The notes: generated by a model from the sequence alone, not told the origin. Positions 4,830 through 27,025 are shown, numbered from the stretch's first letter. The stretch is 64,000 bases of DNA from an uncultured archaeon (GCA_964549685.1 CAZJVE010000004.1:1-64000); one strand, 5' to 3'. Made by a program: numbers and translations.

Positions 4830-4845
4830 TGTAGTGCCTAACTTT
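4830..4845 (+). repeat. Motif TGTAGTGCCTAACTTT, copy 1 (forward)
   Basis: Exact reverse complement of 26967-26982; first 15 nt identical to 12301-12315. Confidence 0.9.
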
Positions 4846-4859
4846 CCCGAACTGGCTGG

Positions 4860-4879
4860 GAATTCTCGCTGCTTGGTGC
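4860..4879 (+). repeat. 20-bp element GAATTCTCGCTGCTTGGTGC
   Basis: 19/20 identical to 12266-12285. Confidence 0.9.
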
Positions 4880-4892
4880 TAGAGGCTTAATT

Positions 4893-4906
4893 TGTAGCGT
4901 CTAACT
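4893..4906 (+). repeat. Degenerate motif copy TGTAGCGTCTAACT
   Basis: 12/14 match to TGTAGTGCCTAACT. Confidence 0.75.
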
Positions 4907-4974
4907 ATCCACACGTATAGCTTCTGATTCATACCTGTTTTAAAGAAACGAATGTAATTCATTAGCGCGGTAGG

Positions 4975-4989
4975 GTAGTACCTGACTTT
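4975..4989 (+). repeat. Degenerate motif copy GTAGTACCTGACTTT
   Basis: 13/15 match to GTAGTGCCTAACTTT. Confidence 0.7.
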
Positions 4990-5032
4990 ATTAAATTTGT
5001 TCTACCCTGAAATTTCAGAAGAGGTGGTCTAA

Positions 5033-7207
5033 ATGAACAAAAAATCTATAACCTGGATATTGATATTTGCTTTAGTGGCTGTTGTTTTGTTTATGAACTT
5101 TGCATCTGCTCCCGCGCCGGTGAGCAAGGTCGAGATAAAGGACAAGCAGGACGAACACATCTTCGTCGTGCCTGGAACGCAGTTCTGCGTCGAGAGAACG
5201 CTGAGAAACAAAGATATAGATAATATAAGTCCTGTAATAGCGCCGTTATTCTCTGAAGGCGCTACGCTGGAGAGCATCGACGTGAAGAGAGTCACTGAAG
5301 AGCAATATATGGAAGACGTTGCTGACTGGGGGACATGCCAGCGGAAAGTCGATAAAGAATTCGATTATGGTGAAGCTGAGTGCGGTAGCCTTGGTTGCTC
5401 ATGGGTTACCGAGAATTTAACCTGCTTCTGCGAGGTTGATAATGATTATTCCTGCATCACAGGTTATCATCAGGAAGAAAAAGTTAGGGATATAGTAACC
5501 TACGAACCGGTCCTTGGAGGCCAATACAAGGACGGAGAAGACAGCAACGACGACGAATATACCGTCGAGATATTCAGAAGTGGTCTACCAGATGATGTAA
5601 GGGCTTTAGAAAACATCGGCTACTCGACCGAATTCGACCTGGAAGATGAAGCAACAATAAGAATGTGTTTCAGAGCGCCTCCGTGGGGTTCAGAGATTAA
5701 GTCAGGGAGAATCTCATATATGACCTTCTATGGGAATGGATATGACTATGAGAGTTCAACCTGGTTTGAGAACTATGCCTACCGGAGGAGCATAAATTGC
5801 GATAACATGACTGATGGGATCCTACTGATAATCAACGGCTCAAGTGGATTCCATAATCTCTCAGGAGACTGCGGCAACCAGTCGGTAATATCCTACTGCT
5901 CTGGAACGGGGACGGCGTTGTATTATAACGCTACTGTCAGTAATGAGTGCAAATATGTGGTGGCAAACGATGCTGGCGAACTATCCAGGCACGTATTCTT
6001 GGGTAACATGTCCGATTATACGCGTCAGAATGCTTATGACCAGATGAATACATCGGCAGCGTGGTATTTTACAAAAGTAGCCATAGATGATTCTACCGAC
6101 CACGGAGCAGACTGGATTGCTACTGACGGAGACCCATCCGTATCAGGTGATAGGGCAATTGGAAATGGCTCAATCCTATTTGATGGTGATGATAGGATAA
6201 ATGCGAGTAGTTCGACGAATATTTCAGCAATATCCGGGCGGCATTTTTCGATGGAATTATGGCTTAAACGCGGTTCGCAGATGGGGTTTATAGCAACCCA
6301 AGAAAGTGCCGACTATGCGTGTATTGGGGCCGTCTATCAGGTAAATGCTACAGCCATATGTTTCAGACGAGGTGATTGTTCTACAGCGGCTGCGGAAAAG
6401 ACAATATGCACAAGAATACCTGAGGGATGGTTTCACTTTGTGGCTGTTGATGATGGAACAAACTTCAAATTATATGTAAATGGAACATTGAATGCAACCT
6501 CAGCCGAAAGCCCAACTATTGCGAATAGTGGCCTGGGCTATGTATTTGGAATGGGGAGAGGCCACCCACAAGCGTATAATGGACATATCGGCATGGTAAG
6601 AATGTATGACTGGGTTCTAACAGCTGATCAGGTTAAGCAACTATATCAAAATATAGATGTAAACGGAACACCAGGTTACGGCGACCTGGGAGACGAGGAA
6701 ACCGCAGACCAGTCCCCCACCATATCGGCACCGACCATCCTGCCAGCAACAGTCTACACCGATAACAACGTGAATGCTTCTGCCACGCCGCTGGATGATG
6801 TAAATGATACTTTTATGGTGGAGTATAACTGGACGGTCAATAATGTCACTAAACTGCAGGGCAACGTTTCGGCGACCAACAATACAGCAGTGAATATCTC
6901 TGAGCTAGGGTATGGCAACTATTCCGTTGGAGATGTAATAAACTGCTCTGTCAGGGCCTTTGACGGGACGAACTGGGGCAATTGGAACTCCTCCGAGAAG
7001 ACGGTATCTGCTGTTCCAGCAGCAGACGACTTCGACAGCGGCGTAATAAGCACCGGGAACTTTACGATAAATCCCTTGGGCACCGTGCTGATAGTCGGGA
7101 ATTCAACGAATACTGTGAAGCTGCAGATGTACAGCTCCAACAGCAGCGTGTTCTGCTGCGGACCAGATAATGACGGAACGTGGAGCTGCAGTTCAGGCGC
7201 ATGTTGA
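5033..7207 (+). CDS. Secreted LamG/ConA-like lectin-domain surface protein
   Basis: Signal peptide; LamG pattern FSMELWLK...WFHFVAV.DG...KLYVNG...YNGHIGMVRMYDWVLT; Cys-rich ends; many N-x-S/T sequons. Confidence 0.8.
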   Translation: MNKKSITWILIFALVAVVLFMNFASAPAPVSKVEIKDKQDEHIFVVPGTQFCVERTLRNKDIDNISPVIAPLFSEGATLESIDVKRVTEEQYMEDVADWGTCQRKVDKEFDYGEAECGSLGCSWVTENLTCFCEVDNDYSCITGYHQEEKVRDIVTYEPVLGGQYKDGEDSNDDEYTVEIFRSGLPDDVRALENIGYSTEFDLEDEATIRMCFRAPPWGSEIKSGRISYMTFYGNGYDYESSTWFENYAYRRSINCDNMTDGILLIINGSSGFHNLSGDCGNQSVISYCSGTGTALYYNATVSNECKYVVANDAGELSRHVFLGNMSDYTRQNAYDQMNTSAAWYFTKVAIDDSTDHGADWIATDGDPSVSGDRAIGNGSILFDGDDRINASSSTNISAISGRHFSMELWLKRGSQMGFIATQESADYACIGAVYQVNATAICFRRGDCSTAAAEKTICTRIPEGWFHFVAVDDGTNFKLYVNGTLNATSAESPTIANSGLGYVFGMGRGHPQAYNGHIGMVRMYDWVLTADQVKQLYQNIDVNGTPGYGDLGDEETADQSPTISAPTILPATVYTDNNVNASATPLDDVNDTFMVEYNWTVNNVTKLQGNVSATNNTAVNISELGYGNYSVGDVINCSVRAFDGTNWGNWNSSEKTVSAVPAADDFDSGVISTGNFTINPLGTVLIVGNSTNTVKLQMYSSNSSVFCCGPDNDGTWSCSSGAC

Positions 7208-7371
7208 TGGGGTACCTAAATTGAGGACAATGACCACGAGAGCGATTTGGTTGGTTTGCATGCTAGTGGTATGTTTTATACATCCTGTTGACGTCGAGAT
7301 CAGGGATGAATTACTGACAATGGCTTTAATTTCAAATGGCTCTACGCAGGCCATAAATTTTTGATGGGAAG

Positions 7372-10300
7372 ATGAAAAAGATAATTATCTTGCTAGGGAT
7401 GCTGGCTCTGATTATGGGGGCAGAAGCTGTTAGCTATGAAACTGTGGGTTATGGAAAAACCATCCCACTCTGCGATGGATGCTCTTTCATTAGCGGAGGC
7501 GACTATTATTTCATGTATGTTGACAACGGTGGAGACGTTATTGTGAATAAAAGATTGGGCCCCGGTTCCTATGATCTGGTAAAGATGATGAAAAACATCG
7601 GGCACGTCAATAATACCATCAGAGCGGATATGTGGATTGAATCGGGGAGGTTTCATGTCTGTATAATGGACAATTCTTCCGGCACGTCTAGGCTATACTA
7701 TAGAGGTTATGAAACTGGAGTGAGTGATGTGGAGGTTGCGAATATCTCCTCTGAGATATGTAAGATTGTTGAGGGCCTAGATGGGCATCCTCATATTTTT
7801 GTGGGACAGACGGAATACAGATGGAACGGCAGCGCATGGGCTTCATCATCAGTCTTGAATAGAGGTATCGGAGACATCATAGTAAATGGTTCCCATTATC
7901 TAGCTTTAACTTCCTACAGTTCCGCGCCCACATACTCCTATGGAGAATTTGAATCCAGAACCTCTGATTCGGGGGCGTTTACCACAAAAATATCTCCTTC
8001 GTCAAGCGTAGGGGCAATGAGTTCGACTGTAAGGCAAATAGGAGCTACCATATATGCTTCAGGGGGCTTTTGTATAGGTGGGGCCGGATATTATAGCACA
8101 GCCATTTACAACAAATCTAACTGGATTAATTCAACCTATCTAGATATTTATGGTGGTGGAAGTAACTGCAATCTTCATATAGAGGATAATGCTTTAATCT
8201 TTGTGAATAACTCCTTCCATCTCTTTGCAAGCTATGTCTTGAGCGATGACATCAATGAGTCTATTACTCCAGATTACAATACTACCTTTACCGAGGCGAC
8301 GGCCGTCTCCTCTCCATACTCCAAATACTTTTCTGCCGATGGAGGGGCTTATGGTTATCTGCTTTATAACCATAACGAGAGCTTTTCCTCCGTAGTCGCA
8401 ATCAGGCTCCAAGCCTACACCTATAATCTTTCCGGCTACGTAAGGAACGTCTTCAGCAGCCAGGTAATAGCTAATGCAAACGTATCCCTAAACTTCAGTT
8501 CCGAAAACCACTCAACCATATCAGACAGCTCCGGCTACTACTTCTTCCAGGAACTGAGTGATATGTACAGCTACACGGTCTCAAAGGCAAACTACTCCAA
8601 CTCCACAGGAACCATCATCGTCACGGGCACGAGCCATGATTTCTATCTCACACCGCTCATCCCGGACCTGTTTATAAATTCATCCTATATTGCAGTCGGG
8701 CCCGAATTCCCCCTAGTAGAACAGAACATCACCATAAACTTCACGGTCAGGAACGTCGGAGCCAACGCGACGGGTGTGGTTCTCGAGGTCTTCGACAATA
8801 ATGTCTCTATCGAGAATTTAACCTTCGGAAATCTCTCGATGAACGAGTCGAAGACGATGAATATTACGAGGAATTACTCGGCGGTTGGATTTCATGAGAT
8901 TCTGGCGGTGGTTGATCCTGATGATGCTGTGAGTGAGGTGGATGAGACGAATAACAATGCCACAGCGTGGGTGAATGTTGGAGAGAGATACTGGAATTGT
9001 GAGTATAGGACCGAGCATTTCATAATCAACCATTGCAGTTATGAGTATTTTATCTTTCCTACTGGCACGACTGTGGACCCTACTGACGATAATAATAACA
9101 ATGTGCCTGATTTTGTGGAGAAGATGGGAGATTTTTTCGAGAAGGTTTATACTTATGAGGTTACTGAACTGGATTATTTGCCTGCAGGTGACTCATATGA
9201 CAACGAGATGTATGGCTATCACGTGCAACTAATGGATATAGGTTCAGATTATGGTTTTGTCCCCCCTGCTTTAGTCAAACTACCAGGAGTCACTGGTTCC
9301 ACTATACAAATAAATTCAGAACTATCATTTCATAATCTGCCGGACGCAGATACTAACGCTGATGGCATAATAGATGATACATTTCTTTTGAGCAATGCCG
9401 GCCACGAATATTATCATGGCATACAAATCAGATACTTGGATATACTATGTTTCAGTAACACATTAAGTAATAATGAAAACCTCTGGGTTATGGAAGGTTC
9501 TCCCGCTTGGATGGAGTATAAGATAGCTAGAAAATATTACCCCTCAATCGTCAAAGACGAAAGTGATGAACTGGTGTTTTTTTATAAAAGGATTGACCGG
9601 TTTATAGGGAATATATATGAAACTTTAAAGCAACAGAGCGATCATAGAAAGTATGATGCTGCTTTATTTTGGTGGTTTTTGGAAAACTATAAGGATTTAG
9701 ACACTGTTAAGTCATTTTGGAGCAGTTTAGACCAGACATGTGGTATTTGGCGACAAGGAGGGGATCCAATATCAGCAATAGAAGACGCAACGGGAGAGGA
9801 CTTCAACGACATCTTCAAGACATTTGCAAAGGCCAATTACTTTAGAGATAGTTGGTATCCTGATGATATTCAATATGCAAGAAACACGCCATTTACATCG
9901 ATAAATCTTGAAAATAATAACTCTCGAGAAATTCCTGTTACATCTGGTGGTATTGATGCTATGGGAGAATACGGAGCATTTTATTTCAAAATAACAGATA
10001 TTCCAGCTAACAGTAACACTAGCATAATCTTCGAGAGCACAACGCCGGGAGAGAACTACTTCATAAGCATCTTTCTGGCAGGTGTTGAAGATCAAGGCGA
10101 AACCCACAATGCTTCAGAGGGCTATTCAAAAATACTAAATTCCAGCGAAAGCGAAGGTACTGTCGTAATTGTGGGTCGGCTGGGTGATGACACGGGAGAT
10201 GGAGACTACAAAATAACTTTCAGAGACATAAGCCCTAATAACCCAGAAACAAATCCAGAGATAAAACCTAACGAAACTATAAACGATACTAAAACCATTG

Positions 10301-11709
10301 ACTCTACCGTGAAGCAAGCATACTTCAATATCGAGTGGGAAGACGGCGATCTTGATCAGATACTAATCGCACCGAATGGAACAGTCATAGATCCACAAAA
10401 GGCAGAGAGTGATCCCGATATAGATTACGTCGAAGGTTCAACTCTGGAATACTACCTCGTTAGAAACATAGAAGCTGGAGACTGGACATTGAACATAACT
10501 GCAAACGACACATCAGCGACCCAGAACGTCACCGTCTCTACGTCACTTAGCAGCAACATTACCTTGTATGCATCAACCGATAAAAACCTCTACGAGCCAA
10601 ACCAGACCATAAACATAACTGCGAACCTGACTCAGGAGGGCTTAGGCATGAACGACTCTACTGTGAAGGCCACAATCATAAAGCCAGGCTCGTCGGAGAA
10701 CATAAGTATGACTAACGAAGGTAACGGTATTTACAATGCCCTATACAATAACACCTCCACTGAAGGTTCTTACACGATAAAGGTTATCGCTAACGGTACG
10801 GTTGGGGGCACCAACTTCACGAGAGAAACTACTATGGGGGTTACAGTTCAGAGCCTTCCTGATTTTGAGGTTAACGTATCAGACATAATCTTCTCTAATT
10901 CAACGCCAAAAGCAGGAGAGAACATAACCATAAACGCCACTGTCTGGAATGTTGGCGACGCGGAAGCTAATGCCACTATCCTCATCTATGACAACACAAC
11001 CTTGGTAAACGATACCTCTGCCATACTAGAAGCGGGTGGAAACATAACATTCTCGACTCTTTGGGAAGTACCAACATCAGGCAATCATACGATAAAGGTT
11101 GGGGTTGATCCCACCCACCTTGTTACCGAGAGAAATGAAAGCAACAATGACGCAAACAAGTCATTAAACGTAAGTCCTGCGATGAAGTTGAGGATGGTTT
11201 GTTGGACTGACCAGGTAGACTACGAGCAGAACGATAATGTTAATATCAGTTGCGACCTTTACAATTATGATTGGACTAACATTTCTGTGGACTCTGTGCA
11301 AGCAGACATAAACGGAACCGAACTCGACCTGACCCAAGACCAGAACGCATCAAACAGGTATTCTGGACTGTTCACGCAGACAAGCCAAATAGGTATTTAC
11401 GTCATAAATATAACTGCCAGTAAAGCCGCTTATGTGAACTACACAACCATTCTGGCCTTCAAAATCATAGAAGCAACCTCAACAGCCAACTGCTCAGGTA
11501 GTGAACCAATCTTTTCTTTGGATTGGAACATTACCCAGTACACCGTTTGTGAGGATACTGACGTATCATTGGCTCAGAATAAGACAGTTAATTTTTTTAA
11601 TGAAACACTAATACTTAATAGTACAGAAGTTAATTTGAACTCCAGCAGAATGGACTTTGGAAGTGCGGGGGTGCTCACTATGGACAACTCAACAATATGG
11701 TTTTGGTGA
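7372..11709 (+). CDS. Large secreted protein with CARDB/Ig domains and a gluzincin-type metalloprotease domain
   Basis: Signal peptide; two CARDB domains (VDP...V.E..E.NN); HEYYHGIQ followed by WVMEG third-ligand motif. Confidence 0.8.
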   Translation: MKKIIILLGMLALIMGAEAVSYETVGYGKTIPLCDGCSFISGGDYYFMYVDNGGDVIVNKRLGPGSYDLVKMMKNIGHVNNTIRADMWIESGRFHVCIMDNSSGTSRLYYRGYETGVSDVEVANISSEICKIVEGLDGHPHIFVGQTEYRWNGSAWASSSVLNRGIGDIIVNGSHYLALTSYSSAPTYSYGEFESRTSDSGAFTTKISPSSSVGAMSSTVRQIGATIYASGGFCIGGAGYYSTAIYNKSNWINSTYLDIYGGGSNCNLHIEDNALIFVNNSFHLFASYVLSDDINESITPDYNTTFTEATAVSSPYSKYFSADGGAYGYLLYNHNESFSSVVAIRLQAYTYNLSGYVRNVFSSQVIANANVSLNFSSENHSTISDSSGYYFFQELSDMYSYTVSKANYSNSTGTIIVTGTSHDFYLTPLIPDLFINSSYIAVGPEFPLVEQNITINFTVRNVGANATGVVLEVFDNNVSIENLTFGNLSMNESKTMNITRNYSAVGFHEILAVVDPDDAVSEVDETNNNATAWVNVGERYWNCEYRTEHFIINHCSYEYFIFPTGTTVDPTDDNNNNVPDFVEKMGDFFEKVYTYEVTELDYLPAGDSYDNEMYGYHVQLMDIGSDYGFVPPALVKLPGVTGSTIQINSELSFHNLPDADTNADGIIDDTFLLSNAGHEYYHGIQIRYLDILCFSNTLSNNENLWVMEGSPAWMEYKIARKYYPSIVKDESDELVFFYKRIDRFIGNIYETLKQQSDHRKYDAALFWWFLENYKDLDTVKSFWSSLDQTCGIWRQGGDPISAIEDATGEDFNDIFKTFAKANYFRDSWYPDDIQYARNTPFTSINLENNNSREIPVTSGGIDAMGEYGAFYFKITDIPANSNTSIIFESTTPGENYFISIFLAGVEDQGETHNASEGYSKILNSSESEGTVVIVGRLGDDTGDGDYKITFRDISPNNPETNPEIKPNETINDTKTIDSTVKQAYFNIEWEDGDLDQILIAPNGTVIDPQKAESDPDIDYVEGSTLEYYLVRNIEAGDWTLNITANDTSATQNVTVSTSLSSNITLYASTDKNLYEPNQTINITANLTQEGLGMNDSTVKATIIKPGSSENISMTNEGNGIYNALYNNTSTEGSYTIKVIANGTVGGTNFTRETTMGVTVQSLPDFEVNVSDIIFSNSTPKAGENITINATVWNVGDAEANATILIYDNTTLVNDTSAILEAGGNITFSTLWEVPTSGNHTIKVGVDPTHLVTERNESNNDANKSLNVSPAMKLRMVCWTDQVDYEQNDNVNISCDLYNYDWTNISVDSVQADINGTELDLTQDQNASNRYSGLFTQTSQIGIYVINITASKAAYVNYTTILAFKIIEATSTANCSGSEPIFSLDWNITQYTVCEDTDVSLAQNKTVNFFNETLILNSTEVNLNSSRMDFGSAGVLTMDNSTIWFW

Positions 11710-11713
11710 CAAG

Positions 11714-12193: not shown

Positions 12194-12265
12194 AGGGACA
12201 CTTCTTAGCCTTCAGCAATCCAAATTCATACTCTTCCACGAATTCACTATCCCTCAAAGCACAGT

Positions 12266-12285
12266 GAATTCTCGCTGCTCGGTGC
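12266..12285 (+). repeat. 20-bp element GAATTCTCGCTGCTCGGTGC
   Basis: 19/20 identical to 4860-4879. Confidence 0.9.
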
Positions 12286-12300
12286 CATGGATTCGAATGG

Positions 12301-18300: not shown

Positions 18301-21300
18301 AACCAGAGCAATCACACCGTTCTATTCAGAGCGCTGTCCTTCAACGAAACCCTGATTACATCAGACTTTATTCTGGATAATTTCAGTATCGGGAATTACA
18401 CAGTTTACATCGCAGTAACGGACAATGAAGGAAACGTAATGAACGCCAGCAAGACGTTCATGGTAATACAGAATTTCTCCATAACTGTAGATACTGGTAG
18501 GGAAATCTACAACCGGAGCGAAACTGTCACAATCTTCGGAAACGCTAACCTTTCCAATGGAACGCCAATGGTCAATGCATCGGTCCAGCTTATCATCATC
18601 CACAACAAGGGCTTCAGGAGAACGGTATACTCTAAAACCTTAAGCAATGGCTCATTCAACTACAACTTCACTCCCTTCTCAGCTGAGGCAGGAGTCTACC
18701 AGGTTGTGGCATCCATCTATTCGGCAACCATAAAAAAGCAGGCAGACGCAAACTTCACTATCCTCGGTCTTCTTGCACCTTCAGCCAACGTCGAGATGTC
18801 CAAGAATTCCGTCCATGACCTATCACTCCCAATCAAGAACGTAGGCAACATCTCTCTCTCCGGGATAAACATCACTATCCTGAATTCCTCCCTGGAAGGA
18901 ACGGCTCTAAGCATCCTGAACCAATCCGCTACGACAATACTCCCTGAGAAGGAGATTACAATGGGTTTAAAGATAAATTCCACACTGTACGCGAATTCCA
19001 CGACCTTCACCTTCAGAATAAGCAGCACCGAAGGAGCCGTGGACTACGGAAGAATCCACCTCAACCTGTACTCAGCAACCCCTGCAGCAAAAGTAGACCC
19101 GTCCGTTCTGGAGGTGGGCCTGAACCCCGGGAATTTCACAACCTATGAGATAAATCTGAGCAACATCGGCCACGCAACAATGAAGGATGTCCGTATCACA
19201 GATGCCAATAACTCTTGGATACTCGCATCACCAAGCAGTCTCGGCGATATCGAGTCCAAGAAGAGCAAAACGTTCGACATCAGAATCCATGCGCCCCAGA
19301 CACAGGGAATCTACGAGGATGAGATAAAGATACTGAGCAGCAACCACGAGCCGATTACAATCTATATGGCGATAACCGTTACCACCGCAAGAAACGGAAG
19401 TCTCTCAGCCCATGTCATGACCGAATGGGGCGAGGACATTTCAGGAGCATACCTCAGGCTGCAGAACCAGAAAGTTCCAACCCTGATAGAATCCTGCCTG
19501 ACAAACTCCAGCGGAAACTGTTTATTCTCAGGGATTCCCGCAGGCAAATATTCATATCTTGCAAGTAAGGACGGTTACTACAGCACTTATGGGACCGTGG
19601 AGATAGAACCTGGAAGGAGTAAGGCGCTGGACATCACTCTCTCAGCCAAGATGATGGAAGTCACCCTCTCCATGACTCCCGTGAAAATAGGGGACCGATA
19701 CTACATATACCTGAATATCACATATGACACGGAGATAGCACCACCTTATATCCTCCCCATCCCTGCGATTATGGACCACTACGTCGACAGAAACGATGTA
19801 CTTACCGAAGGATTGCAGCTGAATAAATCCTTCACCATATACAACCCAGGGCTGGTCTCAATTCACAATATAAGTCTAATGACAGAGCTCAATTCTTCAG
19901 GCTATTCCCTAACCTTCCCTCAGGGCACGATAGAGAAGATTGAAGCAGAGGGGTCAGAGTCAATCCCCTATACTCTCACCATAGAGAAAGGCACCAGAGT
20001 ATCAAACCTGACCAATAATTTTGCAGGCAAGATAAAAATCAACGGAAGTTTCATCCACTTCAAGGAGAATACGGACATAACTCTAAGAGGAAAAACAAGT
20101 GCTGAGGTCCATGTAAAGGTCTACGAAGCCGGCATCAGAGAACTTCTCGTCGAGCCCGACCCAGTATCAATCATAACAAACGAGAACTACAGCTTTTTTT
20201 CTGTAGAACCGAAAGGCCCGGAAGAAAACTTCATGCCCCCCATCAGCATAAAGAACGCCGGCAGTGGGGAGTGGGTATACGTCCTCAGCAAGGGCATCGG
20301 CGGAGCGGTGAAGTATGACCCTGCGGTTGCTATATTGGATGTTCTTGGAATTGGAGAGTTTATTAGAAGACTAATGCCTGGCGACAACTATGCCTTCTAC
20401 TTTCTGGATGCAACTATAACAGAAGAAAATCAGAGTGCTCCAGTATCTATCAGCAGCACGGTGCAGGACCTAAATCTCAAGGACAGCTCTGTACTCAGCC
20501 AGATTGCAGCCAGCTATTACACTAAGTTGCTGGATGACCCATGGGTGACTCTAACACAGGATGAAACCGCTACAATGGAGACTGAAATTTGGGAACTCGA
20601 TATTCCTGGCGAAGACGACATCTCCGACGTAATCTCCTTCAACCTCCCCGGGGTAGACCTGACACAGGGAATAATCACCTTTGCCTATCAATGGCGCTTC
20701 GATGAAAATCCAAGTCTGCATTCAATACCCCTAAACATAATCAACCTGAGATTTCCAGTCATCCAACTACCGGTTTCGTCAGGGACGACCAACACCACTA
20801 CTGAAGAGGAAACAAACCAGACCACATGGTATGTCTCCTACCAGAATATAAGTAATCATACATACACTCCGCCGGAAGTAGACGAATCCCCAGAAAAACC
20901 AGAACTCGATGGAATTAAACCCCATCCAGTAGAAAACATACACGAAAGAGTCAAGCTCTCCATCTCCCAGGAAGCAACATTAGAAATGGACGCATTTGAC
21001 GCCAAGCTGGACATGGAAAACAAGCTGGCTGACAAAACAATAACTAATGTAGTTTCAGAACTCAAGGTATTCGACGGCGGCGGACAGGAGAAGACCACAA
21101 ACTTCCACATTACGGAAGCCGAACTAAGTAACATAGATGATATCAATGGCTCCGGTTCGATAACCCAGGGAAGCACAGCAACCGTGCACTGGACCCTGAT
21201 ACCAAAATCTGATGCCGGTGGTATAAGTGAGGACGGCACAACCTATCTGGTTCAGGCCTTTATTACCTACAAGGTGGAAGGCACTCCATTTGGCATAAAT

Positions 21301-24300
21301 TCCACCGAGGAGAAGATTCTTGTCAGACCATCACCACAGATAACGCTGGACTATTACATCCCTCACAAAGTTGGAGCCAACAAAACCTTTAAGCTGGCAG
21401 TAAAGGCAACCAACGACGGCCATGGAACCGCAAGCAATTTTGCCATAGACTCCGCCCAGCCTCAAATCTACGACAACAAAGCAGAGCTGCTGATAGACTT
21501 TGAGATACTTGGCGATGAGTCACTAAAGGTGAGCTTCGGAGACATCCCTCCCGGCGAGAGCAGGATTACCTCATGGAGCATGAGCTCGTCCCTGAACGGA
21601 ACCTTTTCTGCCTTTACCGCTACTTACGCGCACGAGAATTCCTTTGGAGCCATGGAGACCTCCGTCATCAAGGATGTAAGGACTCACATAATCGAGCAGG
21701 AAATAAACACGAGCAAGGAGTATCTCGATTTCCTAATAGATTCTGATAACGACACCGTTCCCGACACACTGGTTGACCCGGTTAATGGAACTGCCACTAC
21801 TGTACTCTCTACAAACTACACTACTGTAGTTGAACTGCCATCCGGGGGCAGGGGGTTCACGATAGAGGTTAATGTAACAGACATCTTTAACTGGACCCTG
21901 ATTGTAGTAAACGATTCTTATCTGGGCGATGTACCAATAGACGAGATAGTGTACTGGAATGGCACGCAGGTCGAGTCCACAAACTACTGGCTTCTTAACA
22001 ACAAGATATACTTCGTGATTTACATAGTCAATAATACCCGATACAACATAACCTACGACGGCGCTGCCCCCCTACCAAAAGCAGAAATAGTAATAAACGA
22101 AATCATGTACGACCCGGACACCGATAAAACCGGGGAATTCATCGAGCTCTACAACTACGGCAATTATTCTGTGGATTTGAGCGGATGGGAGATATTCGAT
22201 GATTCCGGTTCTGATACTCTGGCAGGATTCAATGGCAGCTCCTCCATTGTTGCTCCAGGCGGCTACGTAGTTATTACAGACAATGACAGCAAAGTCAATG
22301 TATCTGATAACGCAACCCACCTAACGACAGGGGATACTACTGTCTGTCATCGCGGTCTGAAGAACTCGGGAGAGCTGCTAGTTCTCAAAGACAAATGGGG
22401 AGATATCAAAGACCAAATAGGCTATTCCTCACCTATGAAGAAGTGTGACGAGAATTTCTCCCTCGAGAGGATTAATCCGCTGGAGAATTCCTCTAACATA
22501 AGCAACTGGGACCAGAGCAATGTATCGGGAGGAACACCCGGAATGACAAACAGCATCTATGGAAGGGCAGCAATTACTACGACTACTACCAGTACCTCAA
22601 CCACTACAACAACTACAACATCCACTACAACTACATTGCTGCCGGCAAAGGCCCTGCAGTGTGGGGTCTACAATTCCTCCGAATGCACTGGTGGCAGAGG
22701 GAACCTAACCTGCATATTCTCACTATACAATGAAACCAACGCCCACGCCGGAAGCTGCGGCGAATACAGCAAGGCGGTCTGCTGCAACATCTCGAATGGA
22801 ACAGTAACCAGCACTGTAACGACAAGCAGTTGCCCTGCCGGGGATGGTAGGGTGATTTCCATGCATTCGACGACCAATTCTCATGTCGCAATTTACGGCG
22901 TTGATAATTACCAAAACAACGTATGTTTGGACATTGACATAGCAAACGTTACCTGTACCACAAACAACCTTAATTGTCCGTCAGGCTACTATGGCAAATT
23001 AGCCTCAATCTACAGACCAGGAAATGCCCATGTAGGGAACTTTTCGTACTACAACTTCAAGGTATGCTGCAATGCTACTGAGGTCTCAACCACAACTACA
23101 ACGACAACCACTACAATACCAACACTATCATCAGAAATTGTGATTAATGAGGTGATGTACGACCCAGGAGACGGCAACAAAGGAGAATTCGTCGAGCTAT
23201 ATAATGACGGAGATTATGCCGTAAACCTGGCGGGATGGAGAATCTCTGATTCAAGCTCGACTGATACTCTGGAAGGATTCAACGGAAGCTCGGCAGTAAT
23301 AGTGTCCAAGGGCTATGCAGTCATAACAGCTAATGATACATCAGCAACTCCGCTGGGGAGTTCAACCCACCTGAGCACTGGAGACAAGAGAATCGGAAAC
23401 GGCCTCAATAATGGTGGAGACATTGTTACTCTAATCAACACCTTGGGCAATGTCACGGACAGGATTAACTACTCACAGACGCCTTGGTGCGACGATAACC
23501 GCTCGCTGGAGAGGGTCAGTACCGATGAAGATTACTGGAATGAGAGTCTTGAAGATGGAGGAACCCCTGGATATGCTAACAGCGTTTCACAGGGCGGCCC
23601 ACGAGCAGTTCTTGATTATTACCTCCCATCAGAGGTGCTGGCCAACAAGGACTTCAAGATGGTGATAAAGGTCAACAACGAAGGCCAGGGAGCATTGAAA
23701 GACTTTGCCATAGCTTCTGCCCAGCCCAAGGTAAAAGGAAAATCCAAAGCCAACCTTAACTGCCAGGTATCCAATTCCTCCCTGGTGGGCAAGGGCAAGG
23801 GGAAATCCCTCATGATGAATTTCTCGGATATTCAACCAGGGAAGAGCAAGCTCGTCCACTGGACCATGAATACTGACGAGGACGGAAATTTCACAGAGTT
23901 CGAGGCCACCTTCCGCTATCAGAATCCTGCCGGGAAGGTGAAGAAACTTTCCACCGAGATAAGAATTCACTTATTGGAGAGGGAAATCTACACCAACAAG
24001 GAGGATTTTGACTTCCTTGTAGACTTCGATAATGACGGAATCCCCGACCAGATACTGGAATCCATCTACGGCAACACGACCAATGTCTCCAAGGTTAACT
24101 ATTCCATTCACACCCAACTTCCACCACAGGGGAAGGACTTTAGCATCGAGATTAACAAATCCGGCTGGATATACATCCCTGTTGAAGACCCCTACAACAA
24201 TACAGTATCCATAGAGAAGATAACCCTGGAGAACGGCACAGTTCTTCATTCACAAAATTACTGGCTGGATGATAATAAAATCTATATCCTAGATGACCCT

Positions 24301-25668
24301 TCGCAGACATACAATATAACCTACAACCTTTCTCAGGAAACCACAACGACAACTACAACAACGCCCCCAACAACCACGACCCCTGCACCGGAAACTACCA
24401 CTGTTCCAACATCAACTACCACGACTACTTCAACAACTACAACACTCCTGCCCGGCACTTATGGGGTAGTAATAAACGAAATCATGTACAATCCTAATCC
24501 ATGCAGCGATTCCTATTGCGAATGGATTGAAGTCTACAACCCAACGAGCCAGAGCATAGACCTGGGCGGCTGGTATCTCTGCGATGACAAATTGCTGGAG
24601 GGATATGTTGACTATCAGGACGGACTGGTCCATTCTGCCAACGGGATGTTAATTCCGTCTGATGGCCATGCCCTTATTACAGATGGTGGCTCTGGAACAC
24701 TTTTCTATGCCAATCTAAGCGTGAGTCCAAATCTTATAGCCCTGCACGTAAATGCAAGCAGCATGTGCGGAGGTCTTGATAACTCCGGAGAAGAGATTAC
24801 ACTCAGCAACGAAAGCATTACCATTGCTCTCTCATCCTCCTATTCAAAATCAGGACTGGGAGACTCGATAACCTACGACAGCTCATGGGGCGCGAACGGC
24901 AATGGCTATTCTCTGGAGAGGATAAATCCCTCTGCTGACCCGGCCGATGCAGCGAACTGGGGCCAGAGTCTTACGTTGGGTGGCTCCCCTGCTATCAAGA
25001 ACACGATATACTCGCCAGGGGCGAATGAATCCACAACGACCACCTTAACCTCCAGTTCCACAACAACCTCTACAAGCACGACATTGGTGACGACATCTAC
25101 GACTTCGACAACATCCACACTTACCACAACCAGCACATCTACCACCACACCCATCACAACCAGCACCACCTCTACTACATCCACGACCTCATCATCAACC
25201 AGTACAATAACATCAACAACGACCAGCACCACAAGCACAACGACATCTTCTTCAACCACAACCTCGACAACAATCCATGTAGATGATTTTGATTCTGCGA
25301 ATCCCTCCGCGAAAGAGGGCGAGATTATCTGCAAGCCGGACGGAAAGGAAAATTATAGAGAAACAGGAATTGATTGTGGCGGCCCCTGTGGACCATGTCC
25401 TGAGACGACTATTGCTACTGCATCTTTAATCACTACCATGCCCACAACGTCCGTTCCAACTACGACAACGTTATCGGCCACAGCACTACCAACTACAACA
25501 ACAATACCCTCTACCCCCGGAATCATCGGCAGCGTTATAGCGCTATCTCAGGACTGGGCCGGCGAGCTTTCAATCGTCGCGATACTCCTCCTCCTATCAG
25601 CAACAGGATATGCGATGAAGAAAGGCCGGGGCAAGAAAAAGGGACAGTATTCGCTCTCGATGGTCTGA
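12394..25668 (+). CDS. Giant (4424 aa) cell-surface protein: 2 NosD/parallel beta-helix blocks, CARDB, carboxypeptidase-regulatory-like Ig repeats, 3 lamin-tail domains, Thr-rich linkers, C-terminal TM anchor
   Basis: Signal peptide; GNYWS.Y and NTVNGKP NosD motifs; INE(I/V)MY.P...E(F/W)(I/V)E(L/V)YN three times; ETGIDCGGPCGPC; C-terminal TM followed by a basic tail. Confidence 0.9.
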   Translation: MVNTIGYRWVVLVLVLFLATGLASAKTLYVNASGGADFATIGSAITAANSSDEIIVYNGTYYEALTLNKQITLRGVDKPTIDSNSSSSTIKITSEGCVVEGFRLTGNGSNIGMEVGSDRNLIANNSIYGNNKGVSIEGPFLGWVWDRFEWDRPQSNVVINNNVSDNHDGLYLAQSYNGTFINNSLTNNTYNLAVRGSGLYDDYLYDYNQSIDTSNTVNGKPIYYLFKHSDEVIDSATNAGCVYVINSTNITVRDLNLKNNYYGILFENVRNSKAVNLTLKDNYKGIYLDESSESLAINNNISNHMWGIEVYESSNNNLIGNRIENSTYYSIDLRTDSLGNLVHHNNLINNTGNARDLTGSNKWDNGSAGNYWSNYTGTGSYPIPSNSEDRYPLTTEYSSDCTLSSLSVTILAPSSDFSITQKCPNSIKAMIRDNCGNLLIGAKVDALIANEDSTLTLYDDGSHGDDTSKDGIYANNWTPSSNGSYVINVTASGLALSDGEAQLSGLVKNFTGIIVNASATDDSGNCLWNSITEGIASADSGDVVLVYNGTYNGGITISKQVNLTGIDYPLINASGNAVVISANGAVVDGFRIAGSSNGVYIHDQSSNLIRNNLITKGGIYILGTATYVYGYCGNAAHDNQIINNSIQGKIFLYCTYLEDIINNSISGGYAGVNALEAYGTSIIDNVISNNGHGIFLQSSQFVELNNNTLLDNNYSLAILGRSSYDYTHEINASNTINGKPTLYLMSKDNITIDSANNSGFIGVINSSNITIRNLTISSSYQGILLAYSEYSDIENVTLMDNYYGVYLDNSSNGSINNNFIDNSTFGIRLHESDGNHIFGNEVRNSSSIYNTSIYLSSSSGNLVYHNNLINNSGPTGYDNYGSNVWDTGIEGNYWSDYAGNDSNGDGIGDWAYNISGSSVKDRYPLMQKYNMSCRRHGISITLLSPPSVTGDSNVSIITRAIDNCKNLVAGAAATAKIDGNPIPPLYEDVNHTYRRDIFNIIDGSHSLYTCVNDSSGVGNCSNTSFRVDLKTPSILNISYDKGTVTPYENINFTVNVSDVSEIESITLKGVNEFNFTLNGSIGYLIMNMSSLGYVNDGNHSLLVNATDIVGNFNTSNFTIRIRNPDLVVGNLSWNPQSPDDGEIVNFTIRIDNLGGIITSAFLTSLEINGSLAALETKYNLSANSSFSFDENWSAFPGNNTLKVKADYATQINESNETNNELQKILEVGYPDLEVVNITCTSVNVTEGDPVNITARIKNLGSSTRREFYCKILIDNSTILEESINGLNSNIIVNLSKGWNSTGIGQHIIKAIADSGNNVSESNESNSLSISIQINPNPLPDVLVRVMNASGSALEGALVALINTTNIFSNLTSENGSAFFKDIPVGNYRVQAYKSGYWQSSTSVDLEMGETEEVNLTLTSNSIIFGVVNDALTGDPIPNANITLSNILEYSTLTNSTGGYSLSDVKPSDYQIKAWARNYESNTTEVTASAAGVIQLDFSLIPFGEIHGEILNSTGKVSNTTVILYRGDSFSYFVNKSTGDFSFFNISSGNYSLEFSSTGYRTDTVGIELTPGQNLSRNITLKRKPFLKGTVKDNLDQTVSNATILISNENAVISSGKSDENGSYSIMLPLSGTFTVRASAQNHYSSTNTTTVDYDGEKSLNLTLRKHGIVTGYVLDSVSDLRIENANIYLDGSLKVTGNNYSISAEEGIHLLSASAPGHVSNYSWVNFTSGENISLNLSLSPAGNLSGNVTNWDGDPVANASLTLAMNGQIKSIATTNANGTYKFTGIIYGNYTLEASAYGHTPELANPRVFPHQEAKQNFSLRMAGIYPHIDIPYRIYSIGETITFNITATDPWDNVTNITDISISLKKGNQSVPIPAVRIDKGFTANYTIPSNATLGQWVLAINITALANLTQELEIFQFFSPFFIQLRSNSSYLQNSTAIIQSKVSRYSNLSRFLNDSEIDITLTVLNQSNHTVLFRALSFNETLITSDFILDNFSIGNYTVYIAVTDNEGNVMNASKTFMVIQNFSITVDTGREIYNRSETVTIFGNANLSNGTPMVNASVQLIIIHNKGFRRTVYSKTLSNGSFNYNFTPFSAEAGVYQVVASIYSATIKKQADANFTILGLLAPSANVEMSKNSVHDLSLPIKNVGNISLSGINITILNSSLEGTALSILNQSATTILPEKEITMGLKINSTLYANSTTFTFRISSTEGAVDYGRIHLNLYSATPAAKVDPSVLEVGLNPGNFTTYEINLSNIGHATMKDVRITDANNSWILASPSSLGDIESKKSKTFDIRIHAPQTQGIYEDEIKILSSNHEPITIYMAITVTTARNGSLSAHVMTEWGEDISGAYLRLQNQKVPTLIESCLTNSSGNCLFSGIPAGKYSYLASKDGYYSTYGTVEIEPGRSKALDITLSAKMMEVTLSMTPVKIGDRYYIYLNITYDTEIAPPYILPIPAIMDHYVDRNDVLTEGLQLNKSFTIYNPGLVSIHNISLMTELNSSGYSLTFPQGTIEKIEAEGSESIPYTLTIEKGTRVSNLTNNFAGKIKINGSFIHFKENTDITLRGKTSAEVHVKVYEAGIRELLVEPDPVSIITNENYSFFSVEPKGPEENFMPPISIKNAGSGEWVYVLSKGIGGAVKYDPAVAILDVLGIGEFIRRLMPGDNYAFYFLDATITEENQSAPVSISSTVQDLNLKDSSVLSQIAASYYTKLLDDPWVTLTQDETATMETEIWELDIPGEDDISDVISFNLPGVDLTQGIITFAYQWRFDENPSLHSIPLNIINLRFPVIQLPVSSGTTNTTTEEETNQTTWYVSYQNISNHTYTPPEVDESPEKPELDGIKPHPVENIHERVKLSISQEATLEMDAFDAKLDMENKLADKTITNVVSELKVFDGGGQEKTTNFHITEAELSNIDDINGSGSITQGSTATVHWTLIPKSDAGGISEDGTTYLVQAFITYKVEGTPFGINSTEEKILVRPSPQITLDYYIPHKVGANKTFKLAVKATNDGHGTASNFAIDSAQPQIYDNKAELLIDFEILGDESLKVSFGDIPPGESRITSWSMSSSLNGTFSAFTATYAHENSFGAMETSVIKDVRTHIIEQEINTSKEYLDFLIDSDNDTVPDTLVDPVNGTATTVLSTNYTTVVELPSGGRGFTIEVNVTDIFNWTLIVVNDSYLGDVPIDEIVYWNGTQVESTNYWLLNNKIYFVIYIVNNTRYNITYDGAAPLPKAEIVINEIMYDPDTDKTGEFIELYNYGNYSVDLSGWEIFDDSGSDTLAGFNGSSSIVAPGGYVVITDNDSKVNVSDNATHLTTGDTTVCHRGLKNSGELLVLKDKWGDIKDQIGYSSPMKKCDENFSLERINPLENSSNISNWDQSNVSGGTPGMTNSIYGRAAITTTTTSTSTTTTTTTSTTTTLLPAKALQCGVYNSSECTGGRGNLTCIFSLYNETNAHAGSCGEYSKAVCCNISNGTVTSTVTTSSCPAGDGRVISMHSTTNSHVAIYGVDNYQNNVCLDIDIANVTCTTNNLNCPSGYYGKLASIYRPGNAHVGNFSYYNFKVCCNATEVSTTTTTTTTTIPTLSSEIVINEVMYDPGDGNKGEFVELYNDGDYAVNLAGWRISDSSSTDTLEGFNGSSAVIVSKGYAVITANDTSATPLGSSTHLSTGDKRIGNGLNNGGDIVTLINTLGNVTDRINYSQTPWCDDNRSLERVSTDEDYWNESLEDGGTPGYANSVSQGGPRAVLDYYLPSEVLANKDFKMVIKVNNEGQGALKDFAIASAQPKVKGKSKANLNCQVSNSSLVGKGKGKSLMMNFSDIQPGKSKLVHWTMNTDEDGNFTEFEATFRYQNPAGKVKKLSTEIRIHLLEREIYTNKEDFDFLVDFDNDGIPDQILESIYGNTTNVSKVNYSIHTQLPPQGKDFSIEINKSGWIYIPVEDPYNNTVSIEKITLENGTVLHSQNYWLDDNKIYILDDPSQTYNITYNLSQETTTTTTTTPPTTTTPAPETTTVPTSTTTTTSTTTTLLPGTYGVVINEIMYNPNPCSDSYCEWIEVYNPTSQSIDLGGWYLCDDKLLEGYVDYQDGLVHSANGMLIPSDGHALITDGGSGTLFYANLSVSPNLIALHVNASSMCGGLDNSGEEITLSNESITIALSSSYSKSGLGDSITYDSSWGANGNGYSLERINPSADPADAANWGQSLTLGGSPAIKNTIYSPGANESTTTTLTSSSTTTSTSTTLVTTSTTSTTSTLTTTSTSTTTPITTSTTSTTSTTSSSTSTITSTTTSTTSTTTSSSTTTSTTIHVDDFDSANPSAKEGEIICKPDGKENYRETGIDCGGPCGPCPETTIATASLITTMPTTSVPTTTTLSATALPTTTTIPSTPGIIGSVIALSQDWAGELSIVAILLLLSATGYAMKKGRGKKKGQYSLSMV

Positions 25669-25685
25669 TAAACATTTATACAAGA

Positions 25686-26234
25686 ATGAGAAAAATAGTA
25701 TTTAGGATGGAGATGAGAGATTTTTTAATTGGTGGGTTTATTGTACTAATTTTATTCACAGGCTGTACTGATGGAGGAAACCCGCTCAGCACGGGCCCCA
25801 AAGAGGTCTCAGTGGACCTAAGCACTCCGGAAGGGGTGATTGAGGCTTATTGGAAGTATATTGATGTTGGGAAATATGATGAGGTGTATGATCTATTTTG
25901 TGATGATAGTTACTTCGATCAGATTAAAGGTGGTGGTGCTAGTAAAAACTATTACAGTAAGGAAAGTTTCATGGATCATATGGTAAGTGCTTACGGAGAA
26001 CAAGGCGAGAAATTAGATGCGAGTTCCCCAAAGATTACAGGGAAAAACTTACTAAGCAGCAGACGTGCTAGCATTTATGGGATAGGTACAGCGGCAGAGG
26101 AGGGCTACGGTATAGGTTGTGAAGCAGGTAAAGTATTGGCTAGTAGCCCCAGTGGACGGCGGGGTTGGGTAGATATCCGCGGTGGTGGAATAGTGGTCAA
26201 ACACAACGGTAGATGGTGCATCGCAAGCGAGTGA
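25686..26234 (+). CDS. Putative lipoprotein, possibly NTF2-like fold
   Basis: Lipobox-like ILFTGC; TPEGVIEAYWKYI...YDEVYDL helix pattern; AT-rich. Confidence 0.65.
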   Translation: MRKIVFRMEMRDFLIGGFIVLILFTGCTDGGNPLSTGPKEVSVDLSTPEGVIEAYWKYIDVGKYDEVYDLFCDDSYFDQIKGGGASKNYYSKESFMDHMVSAYGEQGEKLDASSPKITGKNLLSSRRASIYGIGTAAEEGYGIGCEAGKVLASSPSGRRGWVDIRGGGIVVKHNGRWCIASE

Positions 26235-26289
26235 TAATTCTAATGAATTCTCTTTCACAAGGATTTATTCTGGAAGACCAAATGATTAA

Positions 26290-26922
26290 TTGATGGAAAA
26301 ATTTCTCTTAGTTATCATTCTGGGTATCGTGCTCCTTTCAGGTTACTGGCTCTATTCGGGCCAGCAGGAAATGACTGGGACTCATACTTTAATATCATTA
26401 CCTAAAGAGATCGAAATCGTGCACCAGGGCTATAAAAGTAGATACGAGCACAAGGGAATCCCTATCGAATTTTCTGAAAATTCAATCAAATACAAAGAAA
26501 AGAAAGACATAGAAGATATCAAAGCGGCATTAACGCTGATCAAGGACAAATCACCTGAGGATTATCGAATGGTTGAAACATATGTAGATGAGATAACGAT
26601 TATTATTGTAGTAATGTATGGTGGCACAGGTGGACAATATACTAGGGGGACAAAGGATATTGATGTAATGCTGCAGATAATAAACCCTAAATGTGTCAAT
26701 TGCGATTTGACATCTGAGGATTACGAGAGGTTAGCAGGTGTAATCGTTCATGAGGCATGTCATTCTATGAGGTACAATACAGGCGTAGGGAGTGCCTTGG
26801 GGCTTGATGAAAATATTTCCCGTGAGGCCATTGAGGAAGAAGCTTGCATTGGAATGGGGAATGATTTCCTGGAAAGGATAAGGAGTGAGCACAGACAGGA
26901 GCCATATTCTGCTGAGGAGTGA
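26290..26922 (+). CDS. Membrane-anchored protein with HExxH (putative zinc metalloprotease)
   Basis: N-terminal TM; LAGVIVHEACH followed by EEEAC. Confidence 0.65.
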   Translation: MMEKFLLVIILGIVLLSGYWLYSGQQEMTGTHTLISLPKEIEIVHQGYKSRYEHKGIPIEFSENSIKYKEKKDIEDIKAALTLIKDKSPEDYRMVETYVDEITIIIVVMYGGTGGQYTRGTKDIDVMLQIINPKCVNCDLTSEDYERLAGVIVHEACHSMRYNTGVGSALGLDENISREAIEEEACIGMGNDFLERIRSEHRQEPYSAEE

Positions 26923-26945
26923 TTCGGTAGGATCGAATCCCCCGG

Positions 26946-26959
26946 AGTTAGGCACTACA
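26946..26959 (-). repeat. Inverted motif copy AGTTAGGCACTACA
   Basis: Exact reverse complement of TGTAGTGCCTAACT. Confidence 0.9.
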
Positions 26960-26966
26960 TCTTAGC

Positions 26967-26982
26967 AAAGTTAGGCACTACA
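26967..26982 (-). repeat. Inverted motif copy AAAGTTAGGCACTACA
   Basis: Exact reverse complement of 4830-4845; 23-bp period with the previous copy. Confidence 0.9.
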
Positions 26983-27025
26983 ATCAAGTTTAAATAACTC
27001 TAAACTAATCTATAACTGAACAAGG

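Follow-up and report, generated by a model that had tools for sequence, protein, structure and literature searches.

A 14-letter word recurs letter-perfect across the genomes of an order of uncultured archaea and on one virus

Introduction

Short words that recur throughout a genome have repeatedly led to the machinery that reads them: this was so for uptake sequences, Chi, parS and SegB sites, each of which brought to light a system that reads DNA chromosome-wide. The DNA uptake sequences (DUS) of the Neisseriaceae and the uptake signal sequences (USS) of the Pasteurellaceae occur at a density of roughly one per kb, and integrons follow the core rule RYYYAAC/GTTRRRY. To our knowledge, SegB sites are the only words of this genome-wide kind described in Archaea, and we know of no archaeal uptake sequence. 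The present analysis concerns the 14-nucleotide word TGTAGTGCCTAACT in a 64,000-nucleotide stretch of DNA from an uncultured archaeon (GCA_964549685.1, CAZJVE010000004.1:1-64000; hereafter the window). A sequence-only reading of the window had proposed that the word marks sites at which a block of surface-protein genes is shuffled.

The SegB motif is described in one report (PMC12284271) as 13 bp long, with 39-49 sites per genome, ~83% of them intragenic, clustered near segAB and kept across genera. The present word resembles the SegB sites of the Sulfolobales in being a word of 13-14 bp with ~30-50 sites per genome, many of them intragenic, which form a local cluster with further scattered sites. 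The SegB sites differ in being palindromic and in going with a segAB operon, whereas the present word is asymmetric, has 1-45 copies per genome, which at gene ends form direct arrays, and reaches a high density on a virus. It is a genome-wide signal whose letters are kept without change in an order of uncultured archaea and on one of their viruses, and not the end of a local element.

Results

The word in its genome and its order

Four exact copies of TGTAGTGCCTAACT lie in the window, at 4830-4843 (+), 12301-12314 (+), 26946-26959 (-) and 26969-26982 (-), as the sequence-only reading had placed them. The chance expectation is 0, and none of 100 shuffles gave any exact match. The inverted match between 4830-4845 and 26967-26982 is exact over 16 nt, and when up to three mismatches are allowed 11 sites are found against 3.74 expected. 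The word has sharp edges around a core, GTAGTGCCTAAC, with a weak preference for C or T at positions 15-16. It is not palindromic, its symmetry being limited to TAG-N3-CTA, and none of six folds of word sites was better than shuffles (z -1.2 to +2.1).

The genome to which the window belongs (G000; 1.17 Mb [1,166 kb] in 27 contigs, 85% complete, the window being contig C4) holds 27 exact copies and 14 with one mismatch, 41 altogether, and the reversed control pattern has none. Only five more copies have two mismatches; exact copies therefore outnumber near-copies. The word is the most over-represented 12-14-mer of the genome and its core the commonest 12-mer (35 copies), at a word density of ~1 per 28 kb. 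Twelve of the 41 copies are clustered within 22 kb (C1 152.5-174.2 kb), beside genes for a MinD-type ATPase and DnaG, among others. The flanks of the copies are unrelated (median identity 33%), the sole related pair belonging to two IS240-type transposase paralogues.

The exact 14-mer is found in 31 of 41 genomes sampled from the order, the reversed control giving one hit across all of them. It is present in all 21 genomes of the same family, in the single genome of family f4, in 8 of the 13 of f7 and in none of the five of f2, f3, f5 and f6, with 1 to 45 exact copies per word-bearing genome. All genomes compared are incomplete bins, and kin are not independent; gene calls are crude open reading frame (ORF) sets, several classifications were made by eye and some gene names come from translations read by eye. 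A literature search found no paper with the core 12-mer or its complement, and none relevant on intergenic repeat motifs of Altiarchaeota.

Two apparent clade 'dialects' of the word, met in families f3 and f6, TGTAGTGCTTGACY in G026 and TGTAGTGTCTGACT in G023, proved to be copies of insertion sequences (IS). Five of the six G026 copies of TGTAGTGCTTGACY lie inside Y1-transposase genes, in which these letters spell the codons for V-K-H-Y, the catalytic Tyr included. All five G023 copies of TGTAGTGTCTGACT are 100% identical over at least 130 nt and stand at contig ends, and are therefore attributed to one IS. A count of 43 of 49 genomes, which had included the dialects, was thus inflated, and 31 of 41 is used instead. 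Genes for the IS200/IS605 transposase TnpA are numerous in some relatives (10 matches in G026:C1, 17 in G017), and their catalytic V-K/R-H-Y codons mimic the word at two mismatches, which produced the false dialects. The number of TnpA genes in relatives does not track the word: G017, with 17 TnpA copies, has one exact word.

Copies inside genes

Seventeen of the 41 copies (~40%) lie inside ORFs of at least 129 aa, housekeeping genes included; the hosts include NadX (aspartate dehydrogenase), TiaS, AcnX-like and UDP-glucuronate-decarboxylase-like proteins, TnpB and an IS240-type transposase. The earlier statement that every copy is intergenic, with none in housekeeping regions, is correct for window copies with up to two mismatches and fails genome-wide, NadX and TiaS being among the exceptions.

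The intragenic copies of G000 are antisense in 15 cases (13 read LGTT, two VRHY) and sense in two (VVPN), and at 25 loci of three relatives 11 of the 12 intragenic copies read (K/E)LGTT. In total, 38 copies are antisense and three sense (P = 9e-5, with one-third as the expectation from open frames). LGTT and VRHY are both antisense readings, and are used 36 and 2 times, respectively; coding tolerance may therefore explain much of the orientation bias.

How the word came to be inside genes can be seen in an alignment of NadX from eight genomes, in which ELGTT stands where others have SLGVD, TLGVD or SLGSE, with the length unchanged. The NadX of another genus has an independent copy elsewhere in the gene, read AVRHYG where others have AVKEYG. 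These substitutions without change of length indicate that the word was written in by substitution at tolerant spots, and was not inserted.

In the TnpB (OrfB_IS605) genes of the clade, the word falls in the linker just before the RuvC-I GxDLN motif (...KLGTT(K/G)KAIGLDLN). Such genes lie at C27 2512-3738 in G000 and at C27 28203-29393 (L222 204-1394) in the sister genome G001, with further probable copies in G001:C5 and C6.

Copies between genes

Nineteen intergenic or gene-end loci of G000 were classified, namely 17 outside ORFs, one in the overlap of two convergent genes (C1 152523) and a two-mismatch copy (C10 10951). Nine of them fall in convergent (3'-3') spacers, against a baseline of 18% (P = 0.003), and 16 of 31 do so when 12 classifiable loci of relatives are added. 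Many intergenic copies begin 0-110 nt past a stop codon, and others stand 34-82 nt upstream of a start codon with AGTTAGGCACTACA pointing to the gene. Several abut a TATA-like box, including those at window 26982 (tttaaata) and at an archaeal histone gene on C1. Between co-directional genes, 14 copies are antisense and two are not.

Some of these positions are kept over considerable distances. In nine genomes of five genera, a small OB-fold (SSB-like) gene is preceded at 52-229 nt by a copy, always with AGTTAGG towards the gene, and arrays of the word past the stops of AAA+, SerB, NadX and TctA genes are kept across genera. The arrays are direct repeats of irregular period, mostly 23-35 nt and up to 73; the nearest opposite-strand pair of copies in G000 is 774 nt apart. 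Two congeners of 87-90% identity have arrays at the same places, with 4 vs 3 and 4 vs 6 copies and shuffled spacers. The array spacers match only their G001 orthologues and none of the mobile DNA compared, and an origin as scars of known elements was therefore rejected. Replication polarity was likewise ruled out as the cause of copy orientation, which switches within a few kb both in the window and along C1.

Link with rearrangements

Sister-genome homology breaks several times at edges of the word, and between G000 and G001 it does so exactly at ...CACTACA on three occasions. One is at window 26982; a second is at C1 46053, where an additional 237-aa gene of G001 abuts the word; the third is inside the gene at C1 100789-101355 (L071 12789-13355). 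In the last case the sequence past ELGTT is unrelated in G001, which indicates that a module was swapped inside the gene. The product is a secreted Thr-rich protein of 188 aa with an Ada-type zinc-binding tail, its N-terminal half being ~88% identical to that of G001.

Other differences between the sister genomes also involve the word. A HepT/MNT pair on C11, accompanied by two word copies, is present in G000 and absent from G001. G001 in turn has an inserted TnpB element; the word falls within its tnpB gene immediately ahead of the RuvC-I motif, a position shared with the TnpB of G000. Fourteen insertions, deletions or replacements could be placed within single contigs, in regions chosen for holding copies; seven touch a word copy, against a baseline of 5-15% (P <= 0.012, computed for at least six). 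The other seven touch none.

The segment formed by the small OB-fold gene and SerB lies between inverted arrays, and is inverted in G004 and G003 (L006 and L008), which represent two genera, relative to five other genomes (L003, L004, L005, L007 and L009); the corresponding locus of G000 is C1 161436-162035. SerB is missing at the OB-fold locus in G000 and G001. Two direct copies on C2 enclose a 498-aa accessory gene that was found in neither congener, and no empty site was seen. No alternative junction was present in Logan contigs of four runs over window 3001-23000, contigs being prone to drop rare variants, and contigs from other samples span both 4830 and 12301 and keep the arrangement of the window there.

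Mobile DNA, a virus and integrases

At least 123 IMG/VR stretches hold the 14-mer, mostly as single hits in unrelated contigs, as chance predicts. Among the matches listed, one contig carries multiple copies: IMGVR_UViG_3300009320_000030 (G049), a virus-like contig of 45,496 bp with a 119-bp terminal repeat. Its 20 copies (13 exact, six with one mismatch and one with two) are all on one strand and are antisense to 48 of its 56 ORFs. Twelve are intragenic, all reading (K/E/R)LGTT, and there are two tandem pairs at a 15-nt period. Besides weak portal and terminase matches, the contig encodes a tyrosine integrase, two ParB_N+HTH_ParB proteins, a methylase and a LAGLIDADG protein. A 1374-aa fusion of PAPS-reductase and ATP-dependent DNA ligase domains (29577-33701) includes seven word copies, among them two KLGTTELGTT tandems.

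Homologues of one integrase numbered 24 in 49 genomes. The three mutually closest (100, 54 and 47% identity) have the word 164-750 nt downstream in one orientation (TGTAG-sense); the other 21 have no word in the flank examined, seven of them with less than 900 nt of flank. In G009, a broken integrase lies 38 nt from the word copy after TctA, and the same arrangement recurs at a fifth integrase, with the copy 1.7 kb downstream. Adjacency to a recombinase, which the sequence-only reading had named as a check, is seen for three of 24 homologues and a fragment in relatives, and for none in G000.

A series on one strand of G008:C67 (L234 326-5356) runs from a word copy with one mismatch through 2 kb, a word, 1.6 kb and a further word to an integrase. 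It is reminiscent of an array of cassettes with the recombinase at its end; the intervening genes either belong to no Pfam family or have weak HTH hits only.

The tyrosine recombinase family PF00589 gave no hit in four word-rich bins that are 69-88% complete, namely G000 (27 exact copies), G003 (30), G039 (16) and G020 (12), from which it follows that maintenance of the word needs no such recombinase.

The window island

The sequence-only reading had described the word as bracketing a 22-kb block with forward copies on the left and inverted copies on the right. A variable block is indeed bracketed, and it is larger (3810-31962, 28 kb), its ends not being simple inverted termini. In a second sister genome, G002, homologues of 3809 and 31963 are joined on contig C43 by a 124-nt spacer that holds only a decayed word copy (10/14); as G002 lacks the whole 28 kb, the block is strain-specific. 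G001 keeps both borders with other content inside. On its left border an ilvN-like gene is followed by a word pair, an MNT/HepT toxin-antitoxin pair and the contig end; on its right, a contig opens with the tail of a homologue of 26290-26922, followed by the double word and then by the homologue of 31962 onward, which in G001:C16 lies within ~110 nt of the double word.

From left to right, the island begins with a gene for a 269-aa nucleotidyltransferase-domain protein (3962-4771, -). It lies in a segment, 3810-4809, that is absent in G001, where the region upstream of the ilvN-like gene runs directly into the word. The exact copy at 4830-4843 (+), which is kept in G001:C112, marks the left border 58 nt upstream of the start of this minus-strand gene. 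A 20-nt box stands beside the word at two places, 4860 and 12266 (GAATTCTCGCTGCTYGGTGC), and in the sister genome; it occurs nowhere else in G000 at up to two mismatches. Its first instance, GAATTCTCGCTGCTTGGTGC at 4860-4879 (+), separates the exact copy from a second copy with two mismatches, TGTAGCGTCTAACT (12/14), at 4893-4906 (+), the G001 equivalent of which is TGTAGTGCCTAACC; G000/G001 homology stops beyond this copy. A third site at 4974-4987 (+) has three mismatches (11/14 as a 14-mer, 13/15 in the earlier register from 4975); alone it is at chance level, and it is therefore counted by context only. These two degenerate copies had been reported previously, along with TGGGGTACCTAAATT at 7208-7222 (+), which is not above chance (11/15) and was discarded.

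The first surface-protein gene to the right of 4830 encodes a 724-aa Laminin_G_3 protein (5033-7207, +), which matches a 1375-aa protein encoded on the virus-like contig at 34% identity over 666 aa. The genes that follow on the plus strand (7372-26922) encode a 1445-aa CARDB/MG2 protein, a 178-aa ORF, a 4424-aa NosD/beta-helix/LTD/CARDB protein and ORFs of 182 and 210 aa without a Pfam family. The second instance of the 20-nt box (12266-12285), together with the exact copy that ends at 12314 (12266-12314, +), lies between the ORF at 11657-12193 and the 4424-aa gene. The two minus-strand copies at 26946-26982, 23 nt apart, start 23 nt past the stop of 26290-26922 and end 6 nt ahead of the TATA-like tttaaata of the gene at 27026. 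The 210-aa product of 26290-26922 has an HEACH (HExxH-like) motif, and its homologue stands at the same island border in G001. The last gene (27026-31936, +) encodes a 1636-aa NosD/beta-helix/CHAT protein, in a segment from 26983 to ~31962 that is absent in G001:C16. An 11-mer, CTAATCTATAA, at both ends of this segment (27004-27014 and ~31980-31990) may be a duplicated promoter piece or a joint of the insertion of the 1636-aa gene.

A Pfam scan of the eight main ORFs (3962-31936) detected no transposase or recombinase, in agreement with the sequence-only reading, and no target duplication was seen. That reading had also offered an operator of a surface-protein regulon as an alternative; the genes that the sites precede or follow are unrelated, with no constant spacing to a TATA box, and the suggestion was dropped.

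Two further repeats were encountered. An unrelated over-represented word, GCYGGGGAATTC, has 33 exact copies in G000, mostly intragenic (read AGEF or EFPS) and including window 59137-59148; some extend to a palindrome, GGGGAATTCCCC. The word ATAGACCTGATAAAC and its neighbours recur about seven times in G000, and could be a repeat family or a CRISPR repeat.

Discussion

A putative docking site at transcription-unit borders

The observations above concern the distribution and conservation of the word, its origin by substitution, its enrichment in 3'-3' spacers, its association with insertions and deletions and its adjacency to integrases. We infer from them a protein that reads the word, and a first role for the word at the borders of transcription units. 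The explanation preferred here, with a probability of about 0.35, is that the word is a docking site for a host factor at such borders and secondarily a joint for incoming DNA. A conserved, sequence-specific host factor would dock on word DNA between convergent genes, just past stops and just upstream of promoters, and the word would thus act as a boundary, insulator or roadblock-type element; inside genes, it would survive only in the orientation and frame that coding tolerates. The sharp word with its unrelated flanks, its order-wide presence, positions kept across genera, the enrichment between convergent genes, the abutment of TATA-like boxes, the origin of intragenic copies by substitution, an orientation that follows the genes and the word-rich genomes with no tyrosine recombinase hit are counted in favor of this explanation. 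The word is also the only long exact repeat common to chromosome, virus, IS and integrative elements, which points to it as the place where foreign DNA joined. The dispersed exact repeat would then double as a crossover or landing site, and the outcome in the window would be the 28-kb strain-specific surface-protein island, with the word at its borders and inner joints.

Several observations weigh against a border element. There is no fixed distance between copy and TATA box in G000, and a run of at least five T follows only ~3-4 of 26 intergenic copies (by eye), with a weak Y/T preference at +15/+16, which is not the pattern of an intrinsic oligo-T terminator. In the host alone, intergenic polarity is 6 vs 2 and not significant, and orientations around operons fit no single insulating logic: the OB-SerB sites would contain transcripts, those of the window island would exclude them. 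The intragenic orientation may be a coding effect only. The range of 1 to 45 exact copies per genome is wide, and on the virus the word is ~13 times as dense as in the host, with 12 copies in genes, which looks more like drive or a function of mobile DNA. No reader protein was found among the candidates examined. The OB-fold neighbor was rejected because all 41 genomes have its gene, whether or not they contain the word, and a DUF192 neighbor gave nothing.

Alternative explanations

An explanation close to the idea of the sequence-only reading, and one considered unlikely, is that the word is primarily a recombination site, serving as the attachment or crossover core for a family of integrative elements with a tyrosine integrase of ~400-430 aa. 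Arrays, borders and cassettes would then reflect repeated integration, excision and decay, with a recombinase that comes and goes with the elements. This would account for the three closest integrases with the word always downstream in TGTAG-sense, the broken and the fifth integrase, the G008:C67 series, the three homology stops (one in a gene with a swapped C-terminal half), the seven of 14 insertions and deletions, the 498-aa gene between direct copies and the inversion of the OB-SerB segment in two of seven genomes. It is at odds with the word-rich genomes (12-30 exact copies) that lack a PF00589 hit and with housekeeping-gene copies that arose by ~7 substitutions, as well as with the 21 of 24 integrase homologues that have no copy in the flank examined and with array spacers that match no mobile DNA compared. 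No element flanked by two direct copies was seen together with an empty site, the window block having inverted copies, and a virus with 20 direct copies would delete itself were the sites mutually active. The proposed shuffling of surface-protein genes thus stands insofar as the word lies at the island borders and inner joints, homology breaks at its edge and some integrases adjoin it; as a full account it founders on a word that is genome- and order-wide, is written into housekeeping genes and abounds where no tyrosine recombinase was found. Similarly doubtful is a 'self' word of the uptake type, kept by molecular drive: an import, recombination or nuclease system that prefers word-bearing DNA would spread the word to every tolerant place in genes, mobile DNA and viruses, as with DUS/USS or Chi. 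The excess of exact over near-copies (27, 14 and five), substitution into tolerant loops, independent gains in one gene, the single dominant frame, enrichment at gene 3' ends, occurrence on virus, IS and cassette DNA, order-wide presence and widely differing copy numbers are all consistent with it. The low density (~1 per 28 kb in this genome, with some relatives having as few as 1-4 exact copies) weighs against it. Moreover, ComEC was not found and the DprA-like match is weak and partial, the clade dialects proved to be IS copies, positional conservation across genera better suits selected sites and the one-strand bias on the virus would be unexpected.

The remaining two alternatives are less probable still. 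A site of chromosome organization or segregation, centromere-like or nucleoid-anchoring, which the virus would carry either to ride on the host system or for ParB-like proteins of its own, would parallel the parS/KorB sites of bacteria and plasmids and the SegB sites, which form a local cluster near segAB, are similar in number, lie partly inside genes and are kept across genera (PMC12284271). The genome has 41 sites, 17 in genes and 12 within 22 kb near the MinD-type ATPase and DnaG, a TAG-N3-CTA core is common to the word and the SegB motif (by eye), and the virus encodes two ParB_N+HTH_ParB proteins alongside its 20 copies. The word is not palindromic, however, and 1-45 copies are too variable for an essential organizer. 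ParB was rejected as a host reader, as ParB_N has no hit in G000 and hits in three of 41 relatives (one over the cut-off); no search was made for SegB. SegA was rejected because the ParA-like gene is of the archaeal MinD type, with no SegA chain among its PDB hits. A replication origin was rejected also: the ~400-aa gene between arrays is SerB and not orc1, and orc1/cdc6 lies on another contig (C3) with no copy nearby. Just as improbable is an element that acts in RNA, in which AGUUAGGCACUACA in the mRNA sense strand would be recognized by an RNA-binding protein or by a small RNA complementary to it, the 3' UTR (untranslated region) arrays serving as multi-site targets or sponges. Here the mRNA-sense form dominates both inside genes (38 of 41) and between co-directional genes (14 of 16), all 20 viral copies are antisense to a gene set that runs in one direction, and many intergenic copies begin within 110 nt of a stop. 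Several copies, however, precede a TATA-like box or lie between divergent genes (4830; C11 11777/11803) and need not be transcribed in that sense, and the frame effect may explain the intragenic bias. An RNA gene was rejected, as Rfam found tRNAs only and the folds were not significant; no conserved complementary RNA gene was found. Taken across these alternatives, a primary recombination site is disfavored by word-rich genomes with no recombinase hit and by substitution into housekeeping genes, uptake by low density, and the border docking site itself by viral density with variable copy number.

Significance

The word is long, exact and order-wide, is common to a virus, and is found at the points of entry of surface-protein genes, toxin-antitoxin pairs and integrase elements into the genome. 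It is a concrete bait for pull-down, a marker for assigning viruses to hosts in Altiarchaeota metagenomes and a candidate landing site for an archaeal integrase. A bolder interpretation, speculative though not implausible, is that the order keeps a 14-letter 'self' word, written into chromosome, viruses and mobile genes, which would be read by a conserved machinery of DNA exchange or DNA-end processing and which elements would use as a safe landing site. Such a mark of DNA exchange or self-recognition would be the first for Archaea, a counterpart of uptake sequences or Chi, and would provide a handle on surface-protein gene exchange in these uncultured cells; the site of a mere regulator would be of moderate interest.

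Comparison with described systems

The ends of Mu- and Tn7-type elements, to which the sequence-only reading had likened the block, share with it the TGT...ACA polarity and a layout with two sites close together at the right end and several more widely separated ones at the left. The likeness goes no further: the block contains no DDE transposase (MuA/TnsB), is a patchwork with other content in G001 and not one unit that is present or absent, and shows no duplication, while elsewhere the word is single in 17 genes or forms outward-facing arrays. A relation to integrons was also suggested on the basis of the word's core, and GCCTAAC/GTTAGGC does fit the integron core rule; toxin-antitoxin pairs and single-gene cassettes adjoin copies, and the same-strand series of one relative ends at an integrase. 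Membership fails, because the copies form direct arrays without the paired inverted core or hairpin of attC, which has two inverted cores 50-150 nt apart, and because homology breaks at the ACA edge, 11 nt from the G|TT crossover. Copies lie in housekeeping genes, and neither G000, which has no IntI, nor the island ORFs have a PF00589 hit. In its available part, a paper on archaeal integrons (PMC9668308) names Altiarchaeota once, as the root of a tree.

Archaeal attachment sites in tRNA genes resemble the present case in having a short sequence beside an intact integrase, accessory genes on one side and repeated cores piled together. They differ in that the word has tens of copies, many in protein genes and most without an adjoining element; an origin from tRNA fragments was rejected, since none of 22 tRNA genes holds the word at up to four mismatches. 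The REP/BIME-RAYT repeats and roadblock terminators (TTF-I/Reb1) are similar in their extragenic arrays at 3' ends and between convergent genes, their sites near promoters and their role as insertion hot spots. The word differs in having no palindrome and in lying also inside genes, and REP/RAYT was rejected because no stable fold was found and the Y1 family PF01797 has no hit in G000. As for DUS and USS, the word is 30-1000 times sparser and lacks inverted terminator-hairpin pairs, competence genes were not found and there are no true dialects. It shares with them, however, the dominance of exact copies, substitution into genes in one frame, enrichment at 3' ends, presence on mobile DNA and conservation at the level of a family or order.

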